This document shows positions 1 through 11,476 of a stretch of 11,476 bases of DNA, piece by piece. The stretch is taken from positions 1 to 11,476 of IMG/VR virus record IMGVR_UViG_2609460354_000010. The stretch is one strand, 5' to 3'. Positions within the stretch are counted from its first letter, which is position 1, and the number at the start of each line of letters is the position of its first letter. Made by a program: the position numbers and the translations under genes. The notes below the pieces were generated by a model that saw only the letters and a list, made by a program, of their open reading frames with translations, was not told where the DNA came from and made no database searches. This DNA is from a virus (taxonomy: Duplodnaviria; Heunggongvirae; Uroviricota; Caudoviricetes).

Positions 1-21
1 ATGGCGCTCATAAATCTGGTA

Positions 22-27
22 TACTTA
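22..27 (+). promoter_or_regulatory. Candidate -10 hexamer (TATACT) of the ssrA promoter
   Basis: TATACT lies about 13 nt upstream of the mature tmRNA 5' end (G40), consistent with a short processed leader. The -35 would be outside the window. Confidence 0.3.
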
Positions 28-39
28 CCTTTACACATT

Positions 40-402
40 GGGGCTGATTCTGGATTCGACGGGATTTGCGAAACCCAAGGTGCATGCCGAGGGGCGGTTG
101 GCCTCGTAAAAAGCCGCAAAAAATAGTCGCAAACGACGAAAACTACGCTTTAGCAGCTTAATAACCTGCTTAGAGCCCTCTCTCCCTAGCCTCCGCTCTT
201 AGGACGGGGATCAAGAGAGGTCAAACCCAAAAGAGATCGCGTGGAAGCCCTGCCTGGGGTTGAAGCGTTAAAACTTAATCAGGCTAGTTTGTTAGTGGCG
301 TGTCCGTCCGCAGCTGGCAAGCGAATGTAAAGACTGACTAAGCATGTAGTACCGAGGATGTAGGAATTTCGGACGCGGGTTCAACTCCCGCCAGCTCCAC
401 CA
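40..402 (+). ncRNA. ssrA: tmRNA (transfer-messenger RNA, SsrA), 363 nt, E. coli type
   Basis: Begins GGGGCTGATTCTGGATTCGACGGG and ends GGTTCAACTCCCGCCAGCTCCACCA (tRNA-like acceptor/T-arm and CCA), matching E. coli tmRNA as I recall it. It contains the internal tag reading frame. Confidence 0.96.
129..161 (+). other. tmRNA tag-peptide reading frame (resume codon GCA; encodes ANDENYALAA, stop TAA)
   Basis: GCA AAC GAC GAA AAC TAC GCT TTA GCA GCT TAA read directly from the sequence; this is the canonical enterobacterial degradation tag. Confidence 0.9.
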
Positions 403-435
403 CTTGCTCTTCCGGATACGTCCGGAGAAATCCTG

Positions 436-470
436 AAAGCCCGCATGGCACAAGCTTTGCGGGCTTTTTT
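436..470 (+). terminator. Rho-independent terminator downstream of ssrA
   Basis: AAAGCCCGCA (436-445) pairs with TGCGGGCTTT (458-467) around a 12-nt loop, followed by a T-run (465-470). Confidence 0.6.
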
Positions 471-515
471 GTGTCTACCGTTGTCCGAGGATATCCAGCT
501 AAATCCAGTGATTAT

Positions 516-566
516 TGGTATACGTTTAGGTATACGGTAGGATATATACCTAAACGCGTATACCAA
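516..566. repeat. Imperfect palindrome (TTGGTATACGTTTAGGTATA / TATACCTAAACGCGTATACCAA) upstream of int; candidate Int arm-type or operator site
   Basis: The two arms are reverse complements except for a 2-nt insertion (CG). They end about 20 bp upstream of the int start and overlap where an int promoter would lie. Confidence 0.45.
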
Positions 567-586
567 TTCATGAAGGAGCGGCCAAA

Positions 587-1783
587 GTGGCAAGAACGAC
601 ACGCCCCCTGACCAACACAGAAGTTCTGCGCGCTAAAGCGTTAGAAAAGGATCTAACGTTGCATGATGGCGATGGTCTTTTTCTGCTCGTTAAAACGAAC
701 GGTAAGAAGTTATGGCGTTTCCGTTATCAACGTCCAGCAACAAAACAGCGAACAATGATGGGGCTAGGTGCCTTCCCCACCCTTTCACTTGCTGACGCCC
801 GACGGTTAAGAGCGAATTACCTTTCCTTGTTAGCCAACGGAATTGACCCGCAAATTCAAGCTGAAATTGCAGTGGAACAGCAGCAAATCGCACTGGACAG
901 TATTTTTTCAACCGTCGCCGCTAACTGGTTCCAGCTTAAAAGCAAAAGCGTTACCCCTGATTACGCAAAAGACATTTGGCGCTCACTGGAGAAAGATGTA
1001 TTTCCTGCCATTGGTGAGATTCCCGTTCAGCAAATCAAAGCCCGAGCATTGGTTGAAGCACTTGAGCCAATCAAAGCTCGTGGGGCACTCGAAACAGTTC
1101 GTCGTCTAGTGCAGCGTATTAACGAGATAATGATTTATGCAGTTAACACTGGTTTGATTGATGCTAACCCTGCATCTGGTGTTGGCATGGCTTTTGAGAG
1201 ACCTAAAAAGAAAAATATGCCGACTTTACGACCGGAAGAACTACCTAAGCTGATGCGCTCTTTGGTTATGTCAAACTTGTCTGTTCCGACGCGTTGTCTT
1301 ATTGAGTGGCAGCTCCTGACCCTTGTGCGCCCTTCCGAGGCTTCCGGTGCTCGGTGGGCAGAGATCGATCTCGATGCAAAGCTCTGGACTATTCCAGCCG
1401 TACGGATGAAAGCGAAGCGTGAGCACATTGTACCGCTATCTCCTCAGGCATTAGAGATTCTGGAAGTGATGAAGCCAATCAGTGCTCATCGTGAACATGT
1501 TTTTCCGAGCAGAAATGATCCCAAAAAACCGATGAACAGCCAAACTGCGAATGCTGCTTTGAAGAGAATTGGGTATGAAGGTAGGTTAGTAGCTCATGGG
1601 TTGCGTTCGATTGCGAGCACTTACCTGAATGAATCAGAATTTAATTCAGATATTATTGAGGCAGCATTGGCTCACGTCGATAAAGATGAAGTAAGACGAG
1701 CCTATAATCGTACAACTTACTTGGCGCAGCGAGTAGAATTAATGAATTTTTGGGGCTTAAAGATAAAGAGTGAGAAACTATAG
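587..1783 (+). CDS. int: Tyrosine recombinase / phage integrase (P4-type), 398 aa
   Basis: GTG start with AAGGAG 8 nt upstream. The C-terminal region has the HxxR box (HGLRS) and a candidate catalytic Tyr (AYNRTTY). It lies directly beside the tmRNA gene. The 3' end is AT-rich like the downstream cargo. Confidence 0.93.
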   Translation: MARTTRPLTNTEVLRAKALEKDLTLHDGDGLFLLVKTNGKKLWRFRYQRPATKQRTMMGLGAFPTLSLADARRLRANYLSLLANGIDPQIQAEIAVEQQQIALDSIFSTVAANWFQLKSKSVTPDYAKDIWRSLEKDVFPAIGEIPVQQIKARALVEALEPIKARGALETVRRLVQRINEIMIYAVNTGLIDANPASGVGMAFERPKKKNMPTLRPEELPKLMRSLVMSNLSVPTRCLIEWQLLTLVRPSEASGARWAEIDLDAKLWTIPAVRMKAKREHIVPLSPQALEILEVMKPISAHREHVFPSRNDPKKPMNSQTANAALKRIGYEGRLVAHGLRSIASTYLNESEFNSDIIEAALAHVDKDEVRRAYNRTTYLAQRVELMNFWGLKIKSEKL

Positions 1784-2959
1784 ATGAAATTTGAATCAAC
1801 ATCGTTAGTCAACATTATCACAGGTAATAATGGGTCAGGGAAAAGTTCGATATTAGCTGAAATTTCAAAGCAAGAATACGTTACAGGAAAAAATGTAATA
1901 TGCTTATCAAACACATCAACCAATAAATTCCCCAAAATAAAAAGCCATCGTTTTCACATTCTTAATCAGTCATCTAACACACTTACCAAAGCATTAAAAA
2001 AAGTTGTAGTAAGCAATAGTCACAATAAGATCGGGTCATCGCACGCACACATTTTCCCAAGAGTATTGGCGTATTTAGATTTCAATGAGCAACTCACATT
2101 TAAATTTACAATCTTCCCTTATGAAAGTTTCATTAGAAAATTTCAATCCGAGATGTACAACAATGAGTTAATCGGTAGTGATATCGATGAAATAACGAAT
2201 CACTTAAGAAATCTAATCGAAATAAACGATGACACTGCTAGCTCTACTGATCATGGAGTGAAAGGCTCTCACATACTTTATTTGGAGTATGCTTTCACAT
2301 ATGAATCAGAAAAAAGAATTAACACCATTCATAATCGCCTCATTGAACTAATGTTAAAGCATGAGCGCATTCTAAAAAAGAACCATTTAATACATGACAT
2401 TGAAATAACCTTAAGTCGTGGCCATAGTATAATACCATCATCTCATTTAAGCTCTGGTGAAGCGTGCTACATGGCAACACTTGCTTTTATCCTTACATAT
2501 ATATCGGATAACAGCGTAATAATAATTGATGAGCCAGAGAATAGTTTACATCCTCGTTGGCAAAAAAAATACACATCAAACCTTCTGGATCTATTATATT
2601 ATTTCGACATAAGAATAATATTAGCGACACATTCACCAATGATTGTTATAGGGGCGGTAGAAGACCATAGTGGCCTAAGTGTTTTCAAATCCGAAAATAG
2701 TACCCTTTCTCCCCTTGAAGGAAATGAAACTAATATTGATGAAGTAATGGTGGATGTGTTCGGTGTATTAACGTCAAGAAGCAGATATTTCAGCTACAAG
2801 ATAAATGAGATTCTTAATGAATACAACAATAAAAAAATAGATATAAATTCAGCACGCGACAAATTAAATAAAACAAAATCACTCGGGCCTGATGAAAGCC
2901 AAGTAAAAATAATTGAAGCAGCCAATGAAATATTAAATCAGATGGTGAAAAATGCCTAA
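1784..2959 (+). CDS. ABC-type (SMC/RecF-like, AAA15/AAA21-like) ATPase, 391 aa; PtuA-like candidate defense ATPase
   Basis: Walker A GNNGSGKSS (res 14-22, K20 codon 1841-1843), ABC signature-like LSSGE (222-226), Walker B IIIDEPE (246-252), H-loop LATHSP. The ATG follows the int TAG with no gap. The gene is AT-rich. Confidence 0.88.
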   Translation: MKFESTSLVNIITGNNGSGKSSILAEISKQEYVTGKNVICLSNTSTNKFPKIKSHRFHILNQSSNTLTKALKKVVVSNSHNKIGSSHAHIFPRVLAYLDFNEQLTFKFTIFPYESFIRKFQSEMYNNELIGSDIDEITNHLRNLIEINDDTASSTDHGVKGSHILYLEYAFTYESEKRINTIHNRLIELMLKHERILKKNHLIHDIEITLSRGHSIIPSSHLSSGEACYMATLAFILTYISDNSVIIIDEPENSLHPRWQKKYTSNLLDLLYYFDIRIILATHSPMIVIGAVEDHSGLSVFKSENSTLSPLEGNETNIDEVMVDVFGVLTSRSRYFSYKINEILNEYNNKKIDINSARDKLNKTKSLGPDESQVKIIEAANEILNQMVKNA

Positions 2960-3548
2960 CTTCACATTTACAGCAGAGAATATCTCTCATATCCGCACTG
3001 CTATATCCGAAAATAAACTCGATGACAAAGTAAAGGTGTGGGAGCACAAATTGCTTAAATCCATGAGAAGAGAACTCAAACAATATATTCTTTCCAACCG
3101 TAATGATGGTTTCAAATGTGCTTATTGCTTAAAGGATTTCCATAATGAACACAATATGAATATTGATGTTGAACACATTCTCCCCAAGTCACAATATCCA
3201 GAATATACGTTCACACTTAAAAATTTAGCGGTGGCCTGCAAGAGATGTAACCTATTAATAAAGAGAAATGATGTTTCATTTTTAAATGCTAACTTCATAA
3301 GAAAAAAACCGTTTAACTCAAAATATTATAAAATATTCCATCCTGTTATCGACAGAAAAAATCACTTATCTCTTCTGGATGTCCATTTTAATGGGTGCCA
3401 CATTATCAAGTATCAAACAAATAGTGAAAAAGCAAACAACACCTACATTTACTTCAAGTTAAATGAAGTTGAGATAGAAACATTAAACAACGCACAAGGA
3501 ATAGAACAGATAATTGATTTACTTCACACATACAACCCAAGAAATTAG
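2952..3548 (+). CDS. HNH-family endonuclease (HNN variant with CxxC...CxxC zinc-finger), 198 aa; PtuB-like candidate effector
   Basis: C56-x2-C59, catalytic-type His in DVEHILP (H75, codon 3174-3176), N91, C96-x2-C99-N. The start overlaps the ATPase stop by 8 nt (ATGCCTAA), indicating translational coupling. Confidence 0.88.
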   Translation: MPNFTFTAENISHIRTAISENKLDDKVKVWEHKLLKSMRRELKQYILSNRNDGFKCAYCLKDFHNEHNMNIDVEHILPKSQYPEYTFTLKNLAVACKRCNLLIKRNDVSFLNANFIRKKPFNSKYYKIFHPVIDRKNHLSLLDVHFNGCHIIKYQTNSEKANNTYIYFKLNEVEIETLNNAQGIEQIIDLLHTYNPRN

Positions 3549-3568
3549 AAACAAAACAATATCTAATT

Positions 3569-3587
3569 AGCCGCCACAAGGCGGCTT
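3569..3587. terminator. Hairpin between convergent genes (candidate bidirectional terminator)
   Basis: AGCCGCC-ACAA-GGCGGCT stem-loop flanked by AT-rich sequence, located between the HNH gene end (3548) and the minus-strand small gene end (3596). Confidence 0.5.
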
Positions 3588-3595
3588 CTACTCAA

Positions 3596-3820
3596 TTAGC
3601 CTTTGGATTTTTTTGGATCATCTTTCCGCTGATAAGTACGCTCTTCCTGAAATCGCCCGTCCTCTTTGTGGATTTTAACCGAGCCTGTTTTATCAGTCAT
3701 ATATTCTTGCATTTCTCTGACAATCTCATTTTTAGTCGTCGCCGTCTTACTTGGTCTTTCATTACCTTCTTTCTGAAGTTTCCATTTATCACCATCCTTA
3801 GTAATGTGATATTTATCCAT
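3596..3820 (-). CDS. DUF2188-like small protein (74 aa from the ATG at 3820; the ORF track gives a TTG-initiated 78-aa form)
   Basis: The motif pattern H-I-T-K-DGDKW-K-KEG...IHKEDGRFQEERTY resembles the DUF2188 family as I recall it. GGAGG lies 5-6 nt upstream of the internal ATG (MDKYH...), so the shorter start is favoured. Confidence 0.65.
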   Translation of the reverse strand: MDKYHITKDGDKWKLQKEGNERPSKTATTKNEIVREMQEYMTDKTGSVKIHKEDGRFQEERTYQRKDDPKKSKG

Positions 3821-4032
3821 TAGAACCTCCAAATGTAGTTAGACATATGAGATGACAGTAAAAATTTTATACGGAAAGAGGCACTAGATTTGTGCCATAA
3901 CTCTCATTCTGAAAATACGCCTCCGATAAACACAATAAATGACATTGGCAACTTATCGACGGTTGGTATTACTGCATCTACATATCGCATACCTGAGATC
4001 ATATTAATATTACGTTCAACCGCTAGCGCGCA

Positions 4033-4051
4033 ATGCTTTCCCCGCCTCGCC
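4033..4051 (-). other. cos site: P2/P4-type 19-nt cohesive end sequence (18/19 match)
   Basis: The minus strand reads GGCGAGGCGGGGAAAGCAT against the P2/P4 cohesive end GGCGAGGCGGGGAAAGCAC as I recall it. It sits between the cargo islet and psu, as expected for an integrated P4-like element. Confidence 0.75.
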
Positions 4052-4074
4052 CGCCCGCTTTGCGGGGCGGTTTT
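4051..4074 (+). terminator. GC-rich hairpin plus TTTT immediately next to cos
   Basis: CCGCCCGC-TTT-GCGGGGCGG followed by TTTT; it would stop plus-strand read-through from the cargo islet. Confidence 0.4.
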
Positions 4075-4153
4075 AATGCAGTTGCACTGACACGCTCAGA
4101 CCGCGCCGGGAATGGTGCGGTCTGCAGAAAATGAGGCAGGAAAACGCATGCAA

Positions 4154-4185
4154 AGCCATGCACCTTATCGATGCATGGCTTTTTT
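4154..4185. terminator. Hairpin with flanking T/A runs between cos and psu (candidate bidirectional terminator)
   Basis: AGCCATGCA (4154-4162) pairs with TGCATGGCT (4172-4180), followed by TTTTT on the plus strand; on the minus strand the hairpin is followed by TTTGCATGCGTTTT. The psu stop is at 4216. Confidence 0.5.
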
Positions 4186-4215
4186 CAGTAAAAACGGGCG
4201 GATTTTCGGGGAATT

Positions 4216-4788
4216 TTACACAGACTGACGTGATGCCAGTTGCGCACTTTTACGCGAAAAAATCATGTTCTGCGCAGGAGTGAATTTTTCACGGCTGTCA
4301 TCCACCGAAGCCGCGTCAGGCCTGAATCCGATGGCCGTTAAAATGTCGCTATCCTGTACGGAATAATTAATTTTTTCACCCTTCGCAAGCCAGGACAGAA
4401 GGGCTTCACGCAGGGCATCTGTGGCACGCTGTATGGCACAGTTTCGGGCAATGGCCGTCAGCTCACTGTAGCCCATCAGCTCCGGTGCCAGTGCCGCCGC
4501 CAGTGCTGTGCCGTGCTGCTGCATAAAATCATTCAGCCGGTCGCGGATGCTGATGTGCTGAACGGCTTCATGCGAACGAATATAACGACCGGCGGCCTGA
4601 TTCACCTGCCATTTTCTGACTTCGATAATATTGCGTAATTCGTCCAGGCGACTGACGTTTCTGCCTTCTCCTGACTGAAGCCGCAGATATTCCTGTTCGG
4701 CCGCTGCCAGCTCATTTTTGCGTTGCAGCCATGCTGCTTTGTTATTCTGACAGGTGTCAAAGGCCTGCTGTAAGGCTGTGCTTTCCAT
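4216..4788 (-). CDS. psu: Polarity suppression protein Psu (capsid decoration / Rho antagonist), 190 aa
   Basis: 190 aa, the same length as P4 Psu; the sequence (MESTALQQAFDTCQNNKAAWLQ...) matches P4 Psu as I recall it. It is the last gene of the sid-delta-psu operon. Confidence 0.92.
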   Translation of the reverse strand: MESTALQQAFDTCQNNKAAWLQRKNELAAAEQEYLRLQSGEGRNVSRLDELRNIIEVRKWQVNQAAGRYIRSHEAVQHISIRDRLNDFMQQHGTALAAALAPELMGYSELTAIARNCAIQRATDALREALLSWLAKGEKINYSVQDSDILTAIGFRPDAASVDDSREKFTPAQNMIFSRKSAQLASRQSV

Positions 4789-4861
4789 CGTTATCTCTTT
4801 CTCATCATGCTGAAGAATAAAAATACGGTGTGCGGCGACGGCCGGGGTTAACCGGCAGCCC

Positions 4862-5362
4862 TCATTCCAGACGCAGCGAATATGATTGTGTTTTTAACCG
4901 TACTGGCGGCAGTTCCTGTTTTTCATGCAGGCGTTCTGCCAGTTCGTCCGGTGTGACCGGGCGGACAATGAAGCGGTTGATGGTCTGAAGCGTTTTAAAC
5001 ACCAGACCACAGCCCGGATCCGTGCACACATAAAAACGTTCGGTGACTTCCTGAGACAGACGCCGCGATGTTCTTGACAGTGCAAGGCCTTTACATCTCC
5101 GACAACAATATCCGGTAACAAGCATTCTTTTCGGGCGTTTCATACTGCCGGAGGCAGAAGTCAGTGAATCGCGGTATCTCTGTTTGCCTGAAATGTATTC
5201 CATTCCTGAATCTTTACTGTCAGAGAAAAAGCTTTCACTCGCTTCAAATGTCGCAGAGCAATAAATATTCCGGCACTGTGCAATCATTATCTTGGTGCCA
5301 TCGTCCATGAAATGTGCGCGGCGGGTGTGAGCAACATGTCCACACGACGGGCAGTAAATCAT
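4862..5362 (-). CDS. delta: Delta late-gene transcriptional activator (Ogr-family zinc finger, duplicated), 166 aa
   Basis: Begins MIYCPSCGH...CRNIYCSATF (Ogr/Delta Cys4 motif) and a second Cys-rich repeat follows. 166 aa as in P4 Delta. The start overlaps the sid stop (ATGA). Confidence 0.92.
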   Translation of the reverse strand: MIYCPSCGHVAHTRRAHFMDDGTKIMIAQCRNIYCSATFEASESFFSDSKDSGMEYISGKQRYRDSLTSASGSMKRPKRMLVTGYCCRRCKGLALSRTSRRLSQEVTERFYVCTDPGCGLVFKTLQTINRFIVRPVTPDELAERLHEKQELPPVRLKTQSYSLRLE

Positions 5363-6093
5363 GACAGCAGTCCTCTGGCCTTAAGCTCTGCTCCCTGCTG
5401 GTCTATTTTGTCCTGCCACACCTTGCGCTGTGCCGGTGTGCCTGCCACCTCATAATCCATGTGCGGAAGTGTTGCCGCTGACAGTCCGGTCAGCCGGAGA
5501 ACCGGCTCGCCGGTGAGGCTGATTTGCATCTGTTTAATTTTCTGTTCCAGCGATGATTTCACCTGCTGCATGACAGCCTTTTCCGGTGCGACGTAGCCCT
5601 GATGGCCGGTGGCGTTGGCGAGCGGATTTTCCTGTACCAGAATGCTCAGATGCATTGCCCGGACAAGCGCCTCACAGGTTTCATTCAGGGCGTGTTCCAG
5701 CTCATGCTCTGCATACAGGCTCAGCAGGTGATGGTGTGCCTTCCGGTAGGCGGTGGCCGTGCTGTCACACGCCCCTTTCAGGCGTTCGCGTTCAAAATTC
5801 AGCACCACGGCCAGATTGTCATATTCCTGTACCAGCTCCCGGCGTGCCACGCGCTCAATGTGGCGCTGTTTCAGCTCGTCGCTCAGGACACCACCGGCTG
5901 CACGAAAGGCCGTGCGCCAGTCGTCAGCGTCGTTTCCGTCGGCCTGCGCCAGCGCATTTTTTTCCTGCTCTGCCCGTTCAATGGCCGTGACGGTCTCATC
6001 CATCAGGCGGGCGTTCTCAAGATGAGCGGCTCTGGCCTTTTCCAGTTGTGCCAGCGCGGGTTGCAGATATTCAGGGATGGTGTTGTCAGACAT
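5359..6093 (-). CDS. sid: Sid capsid size-determination (external scaffold) protein, 244 aa from the ATG at 6093
   Basis: The ORF track starts at a GTG (6111), but GAGGAG lies 7 nt upstream of the internal ATG (MSDNTIPEY...), giving 244 aa as in P4 Sid. The protein is coiled-coil rich. Confidence 0.9.
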   Translation of the reverse strand: MSDNTIPEYLQPALAQLEKARAAHLENARLMDETVTAIERAEQEKNALAQADGNDADDWRTAFRAAGGVLSDELKQRHIERVARRELVQEYDNLAVVLNFERERLKGACDSTATAYRKAHHHLLSLYAEHELEHALNETCEALVRAMHLSILVQENPLANATGHQGYVAPEKAVMQQVKSSLEQKIKQMQISLTGEPVLRLTGLSAATLPHMDYEVAGTPAQRKVWQDKIDQQGAELKARGLLS

Positions 6094-6127
6094 TTTCCGG
6101 CTCCTCGTCACTTCAGGTTAAGAAAAT

Positions 6128-6183
6128 TGTGACGTACACCGGACAACAACACGACGCATTGCAGATGTGCCAGCCCTGACACA
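6128..6183 (-). promoter_or_regulatory. Psid-like late promoter with two TGT-N12-ACA activator (Delta/Ogr) sites
   Basis: TGTgacgtacaccggACA (6128-6145) and TGTgccagccctgacACA (6166-6183), centres 38 bp apart. Placing them at about -18 and -55 predicts a minus-strand start near 6119, 26 nt upstream of the sid ATG. Confidence 0.6.
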
Positions 6184-6262
6184 GGAGACTCATCCTCAGA
6201 CCGGCAAGCCAGGAAAAGGTCGCAGGAAAAACCGGCTTACTGTTTGTTTTTTTATATTTTAC

Positions 6263-6366
6263 TGTTCACCTCTGTTCACCATAAGAAAAAAGATAAGTAA
6301 TACAGTAAGTTAAAGGGTGAACAATCGCAGTAATGACTGTTCACCGTCTGTTCACCACTGTTCACC
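6263..6366. repeat. Iteron cluster: six copies of TGTTCACC (five direct, one inverted); crr/ori-type alpha-binding repeats
   Basis: Copies at 6263-6270, 6273-6280, 6317-6324 (inverted, GGTGAACA), 6338-6345, 6349-6356 and 6359-6366, spaced about 10-11 bp within clusters. TGTTCACC is the type I iteron bound by P4 alpha. An AT-rich tract follows (6370-6470). Confidence 0.75.
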
Positions 6367-6524
6367 CGTTGATGGGCTTTTTGTGCTGTTTATTACTTTT
6401 TATTTTTATTAATTCACTGAAATAAATAAGAAAAAACAATTTGTATTTCACTATAATTTTTTCCAGCTCCTTCCAGAGCGTTTTAAAGCTATCTGGCGCT
6501 GATGTACAAAAAATACACAGCCAT

Positions 6525-6542
6525 TGTAAGGCTGCCGGAACA
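6525..6542 (+). promoter_or_regulatory. Candidate PLL-like late promoter activator site (TGT-N12-ACA) upstream of vis
   Basis: TGTaaggctgccggaACA, with a degenerate second site (TGC-N12-CAA, 6561-6578) 36 bp downstream. Predicted plus-strand start is near 6588; the vis ATG is at 6645. Confidence 0.4.
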
Positions 6543-6644
6543 AATCCCCCCTGTTGCGTCTGCCGAAAATATTCACAAAATAAAGCGCTACCCGAAGCCG
6601 GACGGACTTATCCGGTGCTGTATGGACATTAACGAGGTAGCCCG

Positions 6645-6911
6645 ATGCAAGCTGTTTTTTCTTCCCCGTCTCCCGCCCCTGTGACGCCACTGATGCCGCT
6701 GCCGGACATCACGCAGGAGCGTTTTTTACGTCTGCCGGAAGTGATGCACCTGTGCGGCCTGTCACGCTCGACCATCTACGAACTCATCCGTAAGGGGGAA
6801 TTTCCGCCGCAGGTGAGTCTTGGCGGTAAAAATGTGGCCTGGCTGCACTCTGAAGTCACCGCATGGATGGCCGGGCGCATTGCCGGACGCAAACGGGGGT
6901 ACGACGCGTGA
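6645..6911 (+). CDS. vis: AlpA/Vis-family HTH regulator (excisionase-like), 88 aa
   Basis: HTH core [42 protein letters not shown] is typical of the AlpA/Vis family. GAGG lies 7 nt upstream of the ATG. Its position between the late promoter and the immunity region matches P4 vis. Confidence 0.8.
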
Positions 6912-6946
6912 TGATACCCGTCCTGCAAAAACTCCCTTTTTCTGGC

Positions 6947-6976
6947 TTGCCTTTTTCCGGCATTTGCGGATATAGT
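6947..6976 (+). promoter_or_regulatory. Candidate sigma70 promoter (PLE-like): -35 TTGCCT, 18-bp spacer, -10 TATAGT
   Basis: Hexamers read from the sequence; located between vis and the immunity leader. Only a motif match, not verified. Confidence 0.3.
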
Positions 6977-7002
6977 TTTTCCGCTGCCGCAAAATCGGCA
7001 GC

Positions 7003-7288
7003 CGGGCGTGAGAACCCGAGCAATTCACAGGCGACATATGACGCGCCACGCGTCTTTTTTTGTGTCGCAATCAATGCCACAGAGCGCCAGATTATGGTGT
7101 GGTGTGTGGTCAGTCGTGCAGATGGCATTCCGTGCATCCTGCCCGCGTCCGCTCATTATGCCGCAGAGTCAATGGTAGCTCAGGCGGGGCAGCCTCCGGG
7201 CTGGCCGGTATCCTGTGAAGCCGGTATTCTCACCCCCGTCTGGGCTATCGCCATCGAGCGTGAGAACTCCGGCGATAGCGTTATTTGC
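7003..7288 (+). ncRNA. Candidate P4-type RNA-immunity leader region (seqA/seqB/seqC-like elements and terminator hairpins); exact RNA ends unknown
   Basis: Direct repeat GCGTGAGAAC at 7006-7015 and 7258-7267. A segment at 7220-7233 (GCCGGTATTCTCAC) is complementary to both in 12 of 14 positions. Hairpin plus T7 at 7040-7061 (GACGCG-CCA-CGCGTC-TTTTTTT). Hairpin GCTATCGCC/GGCGATAGC (7244-7279) followed by TTATTT. No convincing coding frame across 6912-7309. Confidence 0.3.
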
Positions 7289-7309
7289 TATTCACAGGAG
7301 GCTGCCATC

Positions 7310-7507
7310 ATGGCTACAACCCTTACCCCCTCACACCCTGAATTTGTCTTTGTGTTTGCGGCTGTCCGTCGCACAGACCGTCATCCCCGTATCTGTATGC
7401 TTCGCACCGTCGCCGGTGATGAACGCAGCGCCCGCCGTTCCCTTGTCCGTGACTATGTGCTCTCCCTTGCTGCCCGTCTGCCGGTGGTGGAGGTGTCCCG
7501 TGCGTAA
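7310..7507 (+). CDS. kil: Small protein, 65 aa; Kil-like by position and size
   Basis: AGGAGG lies 8 nt upstream of the ATG and third-position codon bias is strong. It is the first gene after the immunity leader. The name is assigned from P4 synteny and size only. Confidence 0.6.
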
Positions 7508-7787
7508 TAAAAAAGCCCCTCAGACCGTCTCAGCGCGTCATGACGCCCGTGAACACCTCAGCATTGAGGCTTACCATAAGCTCAACCGCGCCAGCGCCGT
7601 ATCCCAGTTTGTTGGGGGTGATTTGATTCACCGTGAACTCTCCGGCCTGCATCAGCTCTACATTCCGCATATTTTCAGTTACCTGAATGAAGATATTGAT
7701 TTTGTGCTGAATGAGCTGAAAGCCAAAGGCCTGTGCCGCGATTTTCTCGCCCAGCAGAAAGACCGGGGAGACAGGACGCATGTTTGA
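7500..7787 (+). CDS. epsilon: Small protein, 95 aa (GTG start); epsilon-like (antirepressor) by position
   Basis: GTG start 6 nt after GGTGGAGG, overlapping the kil stop; coding-like codon usage. The ORF track's longer 190-aa version has a low-complexity N-terminus that overlaps kil and the leader. The name is by synteny only. Confidence 0.55.
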
Positions 7788-8235
7788 TTTTCCCCAGCCC
7801 GGTGAGATTTACCGTTCTGCCGGTTTTCCCGATGTGGCCGTGGTCGGCATTCTGGAAGACGGTATTCCGTGGGAAATGCCGTACCGCTGCCCGGACATTG
7901 TCTGGAACCCGTACCGCCGTAAATTCAGTATCCTTGTGCGTATCCTCGCTGACGGACGCACCACAGACATCCCGCTGGGGCGTTTTCTGCGGGAATTTAC
8001 CTGTGACCGTCCTGACCTGTTTAAACGCAGCCCCGTAAACCGGCATGCGGTACTGAAAGAAATGGCCGGAGACCCGGAATTACAGAAATGGCGGGAAAAA
8101 TATCTGGATATTTACCCGCAGGCCCCTGTTCCGGTCAGCCGGGCGGCACCGGTGGCGCGGGAATGGCGGGAAATTCCCCGCACGGAGCCTGACCCGGAAA
8201 TCACCCCGGATAACAGTTACCGCAATTATCTGTAA
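7780..8235 (+). CDS. Conserved hypothetical protein, 151 aa (P4 orf151-like)
   Basis: The ATG overlaps the upstream stop (ATGTTTGA), indicating translational coupling. Size and position match P4 orf151 as I recall it. Confidence 0.7.
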   Translation: MFDFPQPGEIYRSAGFPDVAVVGILEDGIPWEMPYRCPDIVWNPYRRKFSILVRILADGRTTDIPLGRFLREFTCDRPDLFKRSPVNRHAVLKEMAGDPELQKWREKYLDIYPQAPVPVSRAAPVAREWREIPRTEPDPEITPDNSYRNYL

Positions 8236-8370
8236 TTAAAAAACGACACCCGAAAAATTAAATGTGCGTATTCGCGCAGGGATACGCACGTCTTCAGGAG
8301 ACGCAGATATGCCTTATCAGTTAATGCAACCGGCACGGAATGCAGTCATCTGTCACAGGGAGGAAAGCAA

Positions 8371-8691
8371 ATGAAAACCCCCTTACCGCCCGTCTTACGC
8401 GCAGCCCTTTACCGTCGCGCTGTCGCCTGTGCCTGGCTGACCGTGTGCGAACGTCAGCACCGCTACCCGCATCTCACCCTTGAATCACTGGAGGCGGCCA
8501 TCGCCGCTGAGCTGGAAGGCTTTTATCTGCGCCAGCACGGTGAGGAAAAAGGGCGTCAGATAGCCTGTGCCCTGCTGGAAGATTTAATGGAATCCGGCCC
8601 CCTGAAGGCCGCGCCGTCGCTGTCCTTTCTCGGGCTGGTTGTGATGGATGAACTCTGTGCCCGTCACATAAAAGCGCCGGTACTGCACTGA
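8371..8691 (+). CDS. cnr: 106-aa protein immediately upstream of alpha; Cnr-like (copy number regulation)
   Basis: GGAGG-containing RBS before the ATG; 106 aa, directly preceding alpha as for P4 cnr (orf106) as I recall it. Confidence 0.65.
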
Positions 8692-8705
8692 AGGAGAACA
8701 ACACC

Positions 8706-11039
8706 ATGAAAATGAACGTAACCGCCACCGTCAGCCATGCACTCGGCCACTGGCCGCGTATTCTCCCGGCGCTGGGGATTCAGGTGCTGAAAAACCGTCA
8801 TCAGCCCTGTCCGGTCTGTGGCGGGAGTGACCGCTTCCGTTTTGATGACAGGGAGGGGCGCGGCACCTGGTACTGCAATCAGTGTGGTGCCGGTGACGGC
8901 CTGAAACTGGTTGAAAAGGTGTTTGGTGTTTCCCCGTCCGACGCGGCCACAAAGGTGGCTGCCGTGACCGGCAGTCTGCCCCCGGCTGACCCGGCAGTGA
9001 CGGCCGCCGCCGTTGCTGAAACAGAAGCCGCCCGGAAGAACGCCGCCGCACTGGCACAAACCCTGATGGCGAAAACCCGTCCCGGAACCGGTAACGCCTA
9101 CCTGACCCGCAAGGGCTTTCCCGGCCGGGAATGCCGGATGCTGACCGGCACACACAGAGCCGGTGGCGTGAGCTGGCGCGCCGGTGACCTTGTGGTGCCA
9201 CTGTATGACGACAGCGGCGAACTGGTTAACCTTCAGTTAATCAGTGCTGACGGCCGTAAGCGCACCCTGAAAGGCGGACAGGTCAGGGGCACCTGTCACA
9301 TCCTTGAAGGACAGAATCAGGCCGGAAAACGTCTGTGGATAGCGGAGGGATACGCGACCGCACTTACCGTACATCACCTGACCGGTGAAACGGTGATGGT
9401 GGCGCTTTCTTCCGTGAACCTCCTTTCTCTGGCCAGCCTTGCCCGGCAGAAGCATCCGGCCTGTCAGATTGTCCTTGCCGCAGACCGTGACCTCAGCGGT
9501 GACGGCCAGAAAAAAGCCGCCGCAGCCGCAGATGCGTGTGAGGGTGTTGTTGCCCTGCCGCCGGTCTTCGGTGACTGGAATGATGCCTTCACGCAGTACG
9601 GCGGGGAAGCCACCCGTAAGGCCATTTATGATGCCATCCGGCCACCGGCTGAAAGCCCGTTCGACACCATGAGCGAAGCGGAGTTTTCCGCCATGAGTAC
9701 CAGCGAAAAGGCCATGCGTATCTATGAGCATTACGGCGAGGCGCTCGCGGTCGATGCCAACGGCCAGCTTCTGTCCCGCTATGAAAATGGTGTCTGGAAG
9801 GTGCTGCCGCCACAGGACTTTGCCCGGGATGTGGCCGGGCTGTTTCAGCGGCTGCGTGCGCCGTTCTCCTCCGGGAAGGTGGCCTCCGTGGTGGACACCC
9901 TGAAGCTGATTATTCCGCAGCAGGAAGCCCCCTCCCGCCGCCTGATTGGCTTTCGTAACGGCGTGCTCGACACGCAGAACGGCACGTTCCACCCGCACAG
10001 TCCGTCACACTGGATGCGCACCCTGTGCGATGTGGATTTCACCCCGCCGGTGGAAGGGGAAACGCTGGAAACCCACGCCCCCGCGTTCTGGCGCTGGCTT
10101 GACCGTGCCGCCGGTGGCCGTGCGGAAAAACGCGACGTGATTCTGGCCGCACTGTTTATGGTGCTGGCAAACCGCTACGACTGGCAGCTCTTTCTGGAGG
10201 TGACCGGTCCCGGCGGCAGCGGCAAAAGTATCATGGCCGAAATAGCCACCCTGCTGGCCGGTGAGGATAACGCCACGTCGGCCACCATCGAGACGCTGGA
10301 ATCCCCGCGTGAACGTGCCGCGTTAACTGGCTTCTCACTGATACGCCTGCCGGACCAGGAAAAATGGAGCGGCGACGGAGCCGGACTCAAGGCCATCACC
10401 GGCGGCGATGCAGTGTCCGTTGACCCGAAATACCGGGATGCGTACTCCACGCACATCCCGGCGGTGATTCTGGCCGTGAACAATAACCCGATGCGCTTCA
10501 CCGACCGCAGCGGCGGCGTGTCACGCCGGCGGGTGATTATTCACTTCCCGGAACAGATAGCCCCGCAGGAGCGCGACCCGCAGCTTAAGGACAAAATCAC
10601 CCGCGAGCTGGCGGTCATCGTGCGTCACCTGATGCAGAAATTCAGCGACCCGATGCTCGCCCGGTCACTGCTTCAGTCCCAGCAAAACTCAGACGAGGCG
10701 CTGAACATCAAACGGGATGCCGACCCGACGTTTGATTTTATCGGCTATCTGGAAACCCTGCCGCAGACCAGCGGCATGTATATGGGGAACGCCAGTATCA
10801 TCCCGCGTAATTACCGTAAATACCTCTATCACGCCTATCTGGCCTACATGGAGGCAAACGGCTACCGGAATGTACTCAGTCTGAAAATGTTCGGGCTGGG
10901 GCTGCCGGTGATGCTGAAGGAATACGGACTGAATTACGAGAAGCGCCATACCAAACAGGGGATACAGACCAACCTGACGCTGAAAGAGGAAAGCTACGGC
11001 GACTGGCTGCGTATTACCGTGAAGGAGATCGGTGAGTAA
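8706..11039 (+). CDS. alpha: Alpha replication protein (primase-helicase with C-terminal origin-binding domain), 777 aa
   Basis: 777 aa, as for P4 alpha. N-terminal zinc-binding CPVCGG...CNQCGAG (primase zinc finger), Walker A GPGGSGKS (helicase), AAGGAG RBS. The TGTTCACC iterons it would bind are at 6263-6366. Confidence 0.95.
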   Translation: MKMNVTATVSHALGHWPRILPALGIQVLKNRHQPCPVCGGSDRFRFDDREGRGTWYCNQCGAGDGLKLVEKVFGVSPSDAATKVAAVTGSLPPADPAVTAAAVAETEAARKNAAALAQTLMAKTRPGTGNAYLTRKGFPGRECRMLTGTHRAGGVSWRAGDLVVPLYDDSGELVNLQLISADGRKRTLKGGQVRGTCHILEGQNQAGKRLWIAEGYATALTVHHLTGETVMVALSSVNLLSLASLARQKHPACQIVLAADRDLSGDGQKKAAAAADACEGVVALPPVFGDWNDAFTQYGGEATRKAIYDAIRPPAESPFDTMSEAEFSAMSTSEKAMRIYEHYGEALAVDANGQLLSRYENGVWKVLPPQDFARDVAGLFQRLRAPFSSGKVASVVDTLKLIIPQQEAPSRRLIGFRNGVLDTQNGTFHPHSPSHWMRTLCDVDFTPPVEGETLETHAPAFWRWLDRAAGGRAEKRDVILAALFMVLANRYDWQLFLEVTGPGGSGKSIMAEIATLLAGEDNATSATIETLESPRERAALTGFSLIRLPDQEKWSGDGAGLKAITGGDAVSVDPKYRDAYSTHIPAVILAVNNNPMRFTDRSGGVSRRRVIIHFPEQIAPQERDPQLKDKITRELAVIVRHLMQKFSDPMLARSLLQSQQNSDEALNIKRDADPTFDFIGYLETLPQTSGMYMGNASIIPRNYRKYLYHAYLAYMEANGYRNVLSLKMFGLGLPVMLKEYGLNYEKRHTKQGIQTNLTLKEESYGDWLRITVKEIGE

Positions 11040-11083
11040 CGGCGTTTTTCAAGGTAGTTGTCGCCTTTTGTAATAAAATTACG

Positions 11084-11476
11084 TTATGCAGCCTCTTTTT
11101 CTGGATTCAGGTAGACTTCTGATATGTAGTCCCAGTTACGTAGATGCTTTCCCCAACGTTCAGGATGCTGTTCGCGTGCCAGCTGGTATACTGCTTTTCT
11201 GGCCGCCAGTATTTTCATATCATTACCTTGATGACGCTCGGCTGGCGTGACGTATTTGATCCCGCTGTGCTTATGTTCAAAGTTGTACCAGTTTACAAAA
11301 CGGTTTACCCATATTCTGGCATCATTAATAGTGCGAAAACCGTTCTCAGGCCACCAGGGACAATATTTGAGAGTCCGGAACAAAGATTCTGAGTAAGGAT
11401 TATCATTGCTGACTCTTGGCCGGGAATAAGAACTTAGCACACCAAGCGCATACATTTTCGCCAACAACGTGTAACT
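11084..11476 (-). CDS. IS3-family DDE transposase (OrfB), C-terminal part; gene continues beyond the window edge
   Basis: DNPYSESLFRTLK resembles the IS3-family catalytic-Glu region, with a C-terminal ...YVTPAE... tail. The reading frame is open to the window end. GC content differs from the satellite backbone. Confidence 0.8.
   Translation of the reverse strand, partial: SYTLLAKMYALGVLSSYSRPRVSNDNPYSESLFRTLKYCPWWPENGFRTINDARIWVNRFVNWYNFEHKHSGIKYVTPAERHQGNDMKILAARKAVYQLAREQHPERWGKHLRNWDYISEVYLNPEKEAA

Follow-up and report, generated by a model that had tools for sequence, protein, structure and literature searches.

An ISEc12-type composite element appears to interrupt the end of alpha, at a contig end, in a Septu-carrying P4-like satellite of Escherichia coli

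The DNA analysed here, referred to as the window (the whole stretch of 11,476 nucleotides), carries a P4-like satellite that ends on its right in a transposase gene, and the question raised by this locus is whether the insertion has cost the satellite the sequences that serve its replication and excision. A preliminary description had placed an IS3-family element 44 bp after the primase-helicase gene alpha, where the origin ori1 and attR were expected, and had suggested that both might be displaced or disrupted, leaving the satellite replication-defective and its defence cargo fixed in the chromosome. The core P4 genes int, psu, delta, sid, alpA and alpha are present in P4 order, and Pfam domains recorded on the genes of the source contig comprise Phage_integrase, Psu, Ogr_Delta, Phage_AlpA and a primase-helicase set. 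The attL site, int and the left operon are also present, as is cos with one mismatch. Between int and cos (window 1784–3548) lies a Septu pair, PtuA (E = 4.9e-162) and PtuB (E = 8.2e-86), predicted with PADLOC, whereas the cargo of P4 is gop/beta/cII; this position agrees with the published defence hotspot of P4 (PMC9122126).

The alpha gene was predicted as a plus-strand ORF of 777 codons (8706–11039) with the Pfam domains Zn_Ribbon_Prim, Toprim_3, D5_N and Pox_D5. It shows 98.5% identity to P4 alpha across window 8706–11010, and the P4 homology ends at 11010, 29 nt ahead of the stop codon. The alignment breaks after ...GACTGGCTGC, and the sequence from 11008 onwards (TGCGTATTACC...) is that of a mobile-element terminus, with the junction between satellite and foreign DNA at 11007|11008, inside alpha and 32 nt ahead of its stop. 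As a consequence the C-terminus reads ...DWL-RITVKEIGE in the window against ...DWL-PKCDDPTTA in P4, the substituted tail RITVKEIGE and its stop codon being encoded by the ISEc12 arm at 11008–11039. Judged from these alignments, alpha is interrupted at codon 768/769 and its last nine codons and stop are element-derived. Since the arm supplies nine replacement codons and a stop, gene callers still see an alpha of 777 aa, and annotation pipelines will score this chimera with an IS-terminus tail as intact. The 44 nt that had been counted after alpha do separate the two stop codons (11040–11083); however, as the foreign DNA begins at 11008, within alpha, this stretch is IS DNA and not a satellite spacer of non-iteron sequence. 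It should also be noted that a second interrupted gene, which encodes a transposase fragment (E. coli BEC1, L004 3792–4037), has received the same tail from an ISEc12 arm (…LRITVKEIGE), and any ORF running into this arm in that frame will seem complete to gene callers.

Table 1. Positions of the features discussed in the window, in phage P4, in the intact relative WGS1363 (L007) and in other records.
Feature	Position	Strand	Remarks
Window: tmRNA gene	40–402		
Window: attL core TGCGGGCTTTTTT	458–470	+	In ssrA terminator; repeated at right end of WGS1363 satellite
Window: arm-type int-binding repeats (T)TGGTATACG / TAGGTATACG	515–567		Recur at right end of WGS1363 satellite
Window: equivalent of P4 ori	6263–6366		Six perfect TGTTCACC iterons, order and orientation as in P4
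Window: alpha (primase-helicase), satellite-derived part	8706–11007	+	Codons 1–767 and first base of codon 768
Window: predicted 5-bp target site CTGGC	11003–11007		Predicted from 5-bp duplications of the same composite elsewhere
Window: ISEc12 (IS21 family) terminal inverted-repeat arm	11008–11039		32–33 nt, TGCGTATTACCGTGAAGGAGATCGGTGAGTAA(C)
Window: nested IS3-family element, IRR end and subterminal region	11040–11083	-	Starts CGGCGTTTTTCAAGGTAGTTGTCGCC...
Window: IS3-family orfB, 3' part	11084–11476	-	C-terminal 130 codons; cut by contig end, not by biology
P4: attP arm repeats, int side (second set)	3621–3965		
P4: attP core	4078–4097		P4 record annotation
P4: attP arm repeats, alpha side of core	4151–4174		
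P4: crr	4291–4590		Two 120-bp repeats with type-I iterons; P4 record annotation
P4: t-alpha terminator	4604–4628		P4 record annotation
P4: ori	9310–9413		Six type-I iterons
WGS1363: terminator after alpha			GACCGGCATCTGCCGGTCTTTTTTT
WGS1363: crr	17090–17209 and 17270–17389		Two 120-nt repeats with TGTTCACC iterons
WGS1363: arm repeats ATTGGTATACG and TTAGGTATACG	17453–17475		
WGS1363: attR core TGCGGGCTTTTTT	17691–17703		13 bp; repeats window core 458–470
IS3-family element in IS21-type tip, L013	2440–4170		
IS3-family element in IS21-type tip, L016	2000–3700		
IS3-family element in IS21-type tip, L010	2470–2530		
IS3-family element in IS21-type tip, L017	2000–2040		

The 469 nt of foreign DNA visible before the contig ends (window 11008–11476) are identical at 469/469 positions, inner junction included, to part of a complete element in BEC1 (L004). 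On this comparison the inserted DNA is best described as a composite, in which an IS3-family element is nested inside a shortened ISEc12 shell. Complete copies, for which both ends were defined in BEC1 and in PA45B (L005), measure 1,695 bp; alignment to them places the start of the tip TGCGTATTACCGTGAAGGAGATC... at window 11008, with its inverted partner ...GATCTCCTTTCATGAAAATACGCA 1,695 bp distant. Of ISEc12 the shell retains only 33 nt at one outer end and 34 nt at the other, without istAB, and within it the IS3-family element proper, of about 1.63 kb and intact, starts at approximately 11040 in the window. This is also the coordinate from which the preliminary description had the IS3-family element start, but the terminus at the junction itself is that of ISEc12, a member of the IS21 family. 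In strains 64.1 (L001) and 146 (L011) the exact 32-nt match of window 11008–11039 opens with base 1 of ISEc12, and the identical arm is present in L004 and L005 as well; in strain 64.1 an ISEc12 annotated as IS21 family lies between the same outer sequences of 33 and 34 nt. A sample of 30 rows out of 2,256 matching records showed the ISEc12 homology beginning at this base (11008) or no more than a few nt away from it.

Clean duplications of 5 bp border the composite at three unrelated E. coli loci, namely ACTGC in L004, CCTGG in L005 and CGTAC in L015, where the copy splits cbtA. The window holds one flank of the insertion only, and the target duplication was seen at these three loci and around a bare shell in JJ1886 (L009). 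A published ISEc12 insertion likewise carries a 5-bp duplication (PMC10711316). The composite thus shares with ISEc12 its outer tips and the length of its target duplication, and differs in lacking istA and istB, with the IS3-family element in place of the interior. Neither istA nor istB was found in the complete composite copies, in which the IS3-family orfAB are the only genes between the tips; with regard to its IS21-type ends, the composite is, from its gene content, expected to be a non-autonomous ISEc12 derivative. A reading of TGCGTATT...TACGCA as the inverted repeats of the IS3-family element itself was rejected, the same tips being present on ISEc12, and it is also ruled out by the existence of a bare 62-bp shell and of IS3-family copies without these tips.

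The bare shell was read in JJ1886 (L009 3551–3612), where two ISEc12 tips alone form an element of 62 bp flanked by the duplication CCTGG, at the same locus as the composite of PA45B (L005 4005–5700). In ACN002 (L012) this locus is occupied by ISEc12 itself, so that ISEc12, the bare shell and the shell with its IS3-family passenger are found in different strains against the same flank, beside an Eco31I-type restriction-modification system. The bare shell is apparently common to many other complete genomes at this locus, with at least 24 rows matching the flank and the first 30 nt of the tip; JJ1886 is the one genome in which it was read, the others being identified from these flank-plus-tip matches. 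A 33-bp exact match to window 11008–11040 was also detected within a 'hypothetical protein' in the PhiR12 phages (PV340549–PV340553), four Escherichia phages, and this may represent ISEc12, a shell or a remnant.

The gene that occupies the right end of the window is a minus-strand ORF running from a stop codon at 11084–11086 past the window end and encoding the last 130 residues of a DDE transposase. The fragment contains an rve_3 domain (E = 1.4e-12), and full OrfB from identical copies gave rve (E = 9.8e-16) and rve_3 (E = 5.4e-12) and scored 169.8 bits against the NCBIfam model NF033516 'IS3 family transposase' (cutoff 160), which bears out the family assignment made in the preliminary description. 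In BEC1 the element encodes an OrfA of 180 aa and an OrfB of 273 aa; the HTH_Tnp_1-like match of OrfA (E = 3.7e-4, 21.1 bits) lies below the Pfam cutoff of 24.1. In RefSeq the two are given as one joined CDS marked 'programmed frameshift' (L004, L005, L013, L015 and L016), and the window holds the 3' part of orfB only. There is no name for this element in RefSeq. Its nearest relatives named by PGAP are ISAs20, ISPsy31 and ISSpu6, with 56–60% OrfB identity, and a DNA-level match also names ISAzo10 (79.6% nucleotide identity).

The OrfA, the OrfB with its rve and rve_3 domains and the score above the model cutoff are shared with the IS3 family, whereas the canonical TG...CA tips of that family were not recognised in the element. 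The inner ends of the element, CGGCGTTTTTCAAGGTAGTTGTCGCC and GGCGACAACTATGCTGACACAGGGG, have a 12-nt perfect inverted core with no clear TG/CA tips, and an internal inverted repeat (TAGTTGTCGCCT / AGGCGACAACTA) is present. In copies outside the shell the homology starts exactly at the inner boundary (11040), in agreement with the flanks of L010, L013 and L016. Those in L013 and L016 are simple insertions 29–34 nt inside an ISEc12 tip; both orientations occur, the 5-bp duplication is GTTAT/ATAAC, and in L010 the element lies 32 nt inside a related IS21-like tip. Wherever flanks were read, the element lay 29–34 nt within a terminal repeat, either that of ISEc12 or that of a related IS21-type element (Table 1). 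The recurrence of this position suggests that the IS3-family element targets IS21-family tips site-specifically. A comparable arrangement exists in the In2 integron of Tn21, where IS1326 (IS21 family) contains IS1353 (IS3 family); this likeness serves as a lead only. It is quite possible, and is proposed here tentatively, that such a tip specialist deleted the ISEc12 interior and so gave rise to a shell with passenger of 1.7 kb, on which the IS21 transposase acts in trans. The passenger would then profit from the transposition machinery of a different family, and the window would record one hop, with the replication gene of a satellite as its target.

To assess what the insertion may have affected, the layout of P4 itself has to be considered. 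In the P4 record, alpha is followed by a terminator, crr and attP, and ori lies elsewhere, between orf88 and sid, so the earlier placing of ori1 just beyond alpha does not hold for P4. The ori cluster of the window satellite is likewise distant from the insertion, intact and untouched by it, which disposes of the suggestion that the origin was displaced or disrupted; the element at stake would be crr, annotated in the GenBank record of P4 as 'cis required region'. In P4, crr is needed for replication. No TGTTCACC iterons were found downstream of alpha in the window, as had been observed in the preliminary description, and the crr repeats were not seen there either. Compared with the right end of P4, the window has the insertion and the contig end in place of the terminator-crr-att segment. 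It was correctly recognised that an IS occupies the usual place of right-end sequences, and this IS even clips alpha, but the lack of a right end goes back to the contig break, and no deletion was observed.

With respect to the attachment site, the attL core forms part of the hairpin of the ssrA terminator, 56 nt beyond the 3' end of the tmRNA and outside the tmRNA gene. The window satellite sits at this terminator and not at the attachment site used by P4. In WGS1363 (L007) the attR core is the same 13-bp TGCGGGCTTTTTT of the hairpin, 56 nt past the tmRNA, and not the duplicated ssrA 3' segment that had been anticipated.

The satellite of the window, including its int, Septu cargo and alpha, is found in eight complete E. 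coli genomes in which alpha is uninterrupted and the identity over window 1–11007 is 98.7–99.6%. The region downstream of alpha was read in two of the eight, WGS1363 and EC14 (L008), and this comparison with intact relatives, which had been proposed earlier, showed that both carry a terminator, the crr iterons and the arm repeats beyond alpha. The arm-type repeats GGTATACG of window 515–567 recur at the right end of both. The attR core was found in WGS1363, where the element measures 11,251 bp from core to core; a scan of the right end in EC14 gave 9-nt matches only. The intact relatives thus share with P4 the terminator, the two 120-nt crr repeats with TGTTCACC iterons and the int arm repeats, together with an att core in WGS1363. 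The chromosome that follows the satellite at ssrA is glaH-lhgO-gabD in WGS1363 and ypjA in EC14, so that the chromosomal surroundings on the right of the ssrA site are not the same in all lineages.

Two further strains show what ISEc12 itself has done in this part of the satellite. In strain 146 (L011 4777–7357) a full ISEc12 lies in crr repeat 1 with the duplication CAGTG, and in strain 64.1 (L001 7059–9639) a full ISEc12 lies in an int arm-type site with the duplication GTATAC. Both copies are oriented as the element of the window, and both are simple insertions in which crr, the arm sites and attR have been kept. Three independent ISEc12-type insertions are accordingly known within about 700 bp, and a full ISEc12 is present there in 2 of approximately 2,800 complete genomes with an alpha match. 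The insertion in alpha was absent from all complete E. coli genomes searched, which points to a recent and strain-specific event.

The last base of the window is also the last base of the draft contig JNPG01000055.1 (36,861 bp; assembly GCA_000703745.1). The window thus stops at a break of the draft assembly inside a repeat, and the transposase gene that had been described as running off the window does so for this reason and not for a biological one. Nothing about deletion can be concluded from the lack of crr and attR in the window, given that the contig breaks off within the repeat. The exact chimeric alpha and the partial transposase product are recorded only on this contig, so that an extension of the sequence, which was attempted, stopped at the window end, and the partner contig was not found in the four collections scanned for junctions. 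In these collections (5,426 complete E. coli genomes, the GTDB representative genomes, the JGI metagenomes and IMG/VR) there was no match to the left junction, nor to the right junction predicted with a 5-bp duplication, for which a chimeric 802-nt query and exact patterns were used. Of the features that had been named as worth looking for, both inverted ends of the element were read in L004 and L005, and target-site duplications, of 5 bp, in L004, L005 and L015. A scan of 10900–11476 for promoters and terminators gave nothing, which agrees with the loss of the alpha terminator from its usual position.

A simple insertion of the composite, with an intact right end beyond it, is probably the correct explanation of this locus, and a simple, recent and strain-specific insertion was judged the most likely course of events. 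It would be different if DNA beyond the insertion had been lost, through an IS-mediated adjacent deletion or through recombination between IS copies, for a satellite without crr, arm sites and attR could neither replicate from ori and crr nor excise, and Septu would be fixed. The window indeed shows no crr, arm site or attR after alpha, but this is fully accounted for by the contig end. The IS3 passenger is evidently capable of deletion, given that the composite seems to have arisen when an IS3-mediated deletion removed the interior of ISEc12; the contig also goes 469 nt into the repeat before it breaks, which is compatible with an unusual local structure, and the predicted right junction was found nowhere in the collections scanned. 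Against this, the left junction coincides precisely with an element tip, as transposition predicts, the insertion is limited to one assembly and is thus recent, and the flanks were kept with intact duplications in all three composite copies from complete genomes and in the two ISEc12 copies of the same interval. An associated deletion is on this evidence considered unlikely.

The composite could also have been assembled in place, by a full ISEc12 or a bare 62-bp shell that entered alpha and later received the IS3-family element in its tip region, the interior then being deleted in the case of a full ISEc12. The three forms do all exist at the PA45B locus in different strains, and the IS3-family element inserts site-specifically 29–34 nt inside ISEc12 tips in either orientation; yet the composite of the window equals the BEC1 copy base for base over 469 nt, inner junction included, composites with their own clean 5-bp duplications are found at unrelated loci, as fits movement as a unit, and neither ISEc12 nor a bare shell occupies this position of alpha in any complete genome. 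Such a stepwise course is therefore held to be improbable. A chimeric join of alpha and IS by the assembler might be suspected in a short-read draft with a contig that ends in a repeat, but is extremely improbable for a join that meets a transposable-element terminus exactly where this starts, and not within a shared repeat, and is followed by 469 nt of the element without a mismatch.

Under the preferred reading of a simple insertion, a non-autonomous composite of 1,695 bp would have transposed into codon 768/769 of alpha in a Septu-carrying P4-like satellite at the ssrA terminator of the E. coli strain represented by GCA_000703745.1. Because its ends and 5-bp duplications are of ISEc12 type, a resident ISEc12 would have supplied the IstA/IstB that mobilised it in trans. 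The last 29 nt of the original alpha, the terminator, crr, the int arm sites and attR would be expected intact about 1.7 kb further, on another contig. The right junction is predicted to consist of an ISEc12-type right arm ending in ...CATGAAAATACGCA (ATACGCA), followed by (A)CTGGC and TGCCAAAATGTGACGACC, and beyond it the order would be the terminator GACCGGCATCTGCCGGTCTTTTTTT, two 120-nt repeats with TGTTCACC, then ATTGGTATACGATTAGGTATACG and TGCGGGCTTTTTT.

With regard to function, the crystallised origin-binding domain of P4 alpha (PDB 1KA8) corresponds to residues 671–770, and the window protein is identical through residue 768, so that the exchange of the tail affects two residues of the 1KA8 construct and seven beyond. 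As the domain is kept to this extent, alpha is, on sequence grounds, probably still active. In the absence of the terminator, transcription of alpha would read into the IS, antisense to the transposase, and a simple insertion would place crr about 1.7 kb further away from alpha. With the insertion, the excised element would measure about 12.95 kb instead of the approximately 11.25 kb of the intact relative, a length that may make its packaging into small capsids of P4 size difficult. A replication defect with chromosomal fixation of the cargo, as proposed in the preliminary description, is less likely, as the right end is kept in the ISEc12 precedents of strains 64.1 and 146 and the alpha domain shows no change up to and including residue 768.

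What had been noticed is genuine, but it is an ordinary IS insertion that lies at the end of a contig and gives no evidence for the loss of an origin, and a right end that is missing at a contig break in a repeat should not be taken as the loss of crr or attR. An IS3-family element that nests in IS21 tips and travels in the shell will be of modest interest to IS specialists. For the P4-like satellites, the window adds one more ISEc12-type insertion in the interval of alpha, crr and attR to those of strains 146 and 64.1, and it is plausible that insertions in this interval represent a first step towards the immobilisation of a defence-carrying satellite.
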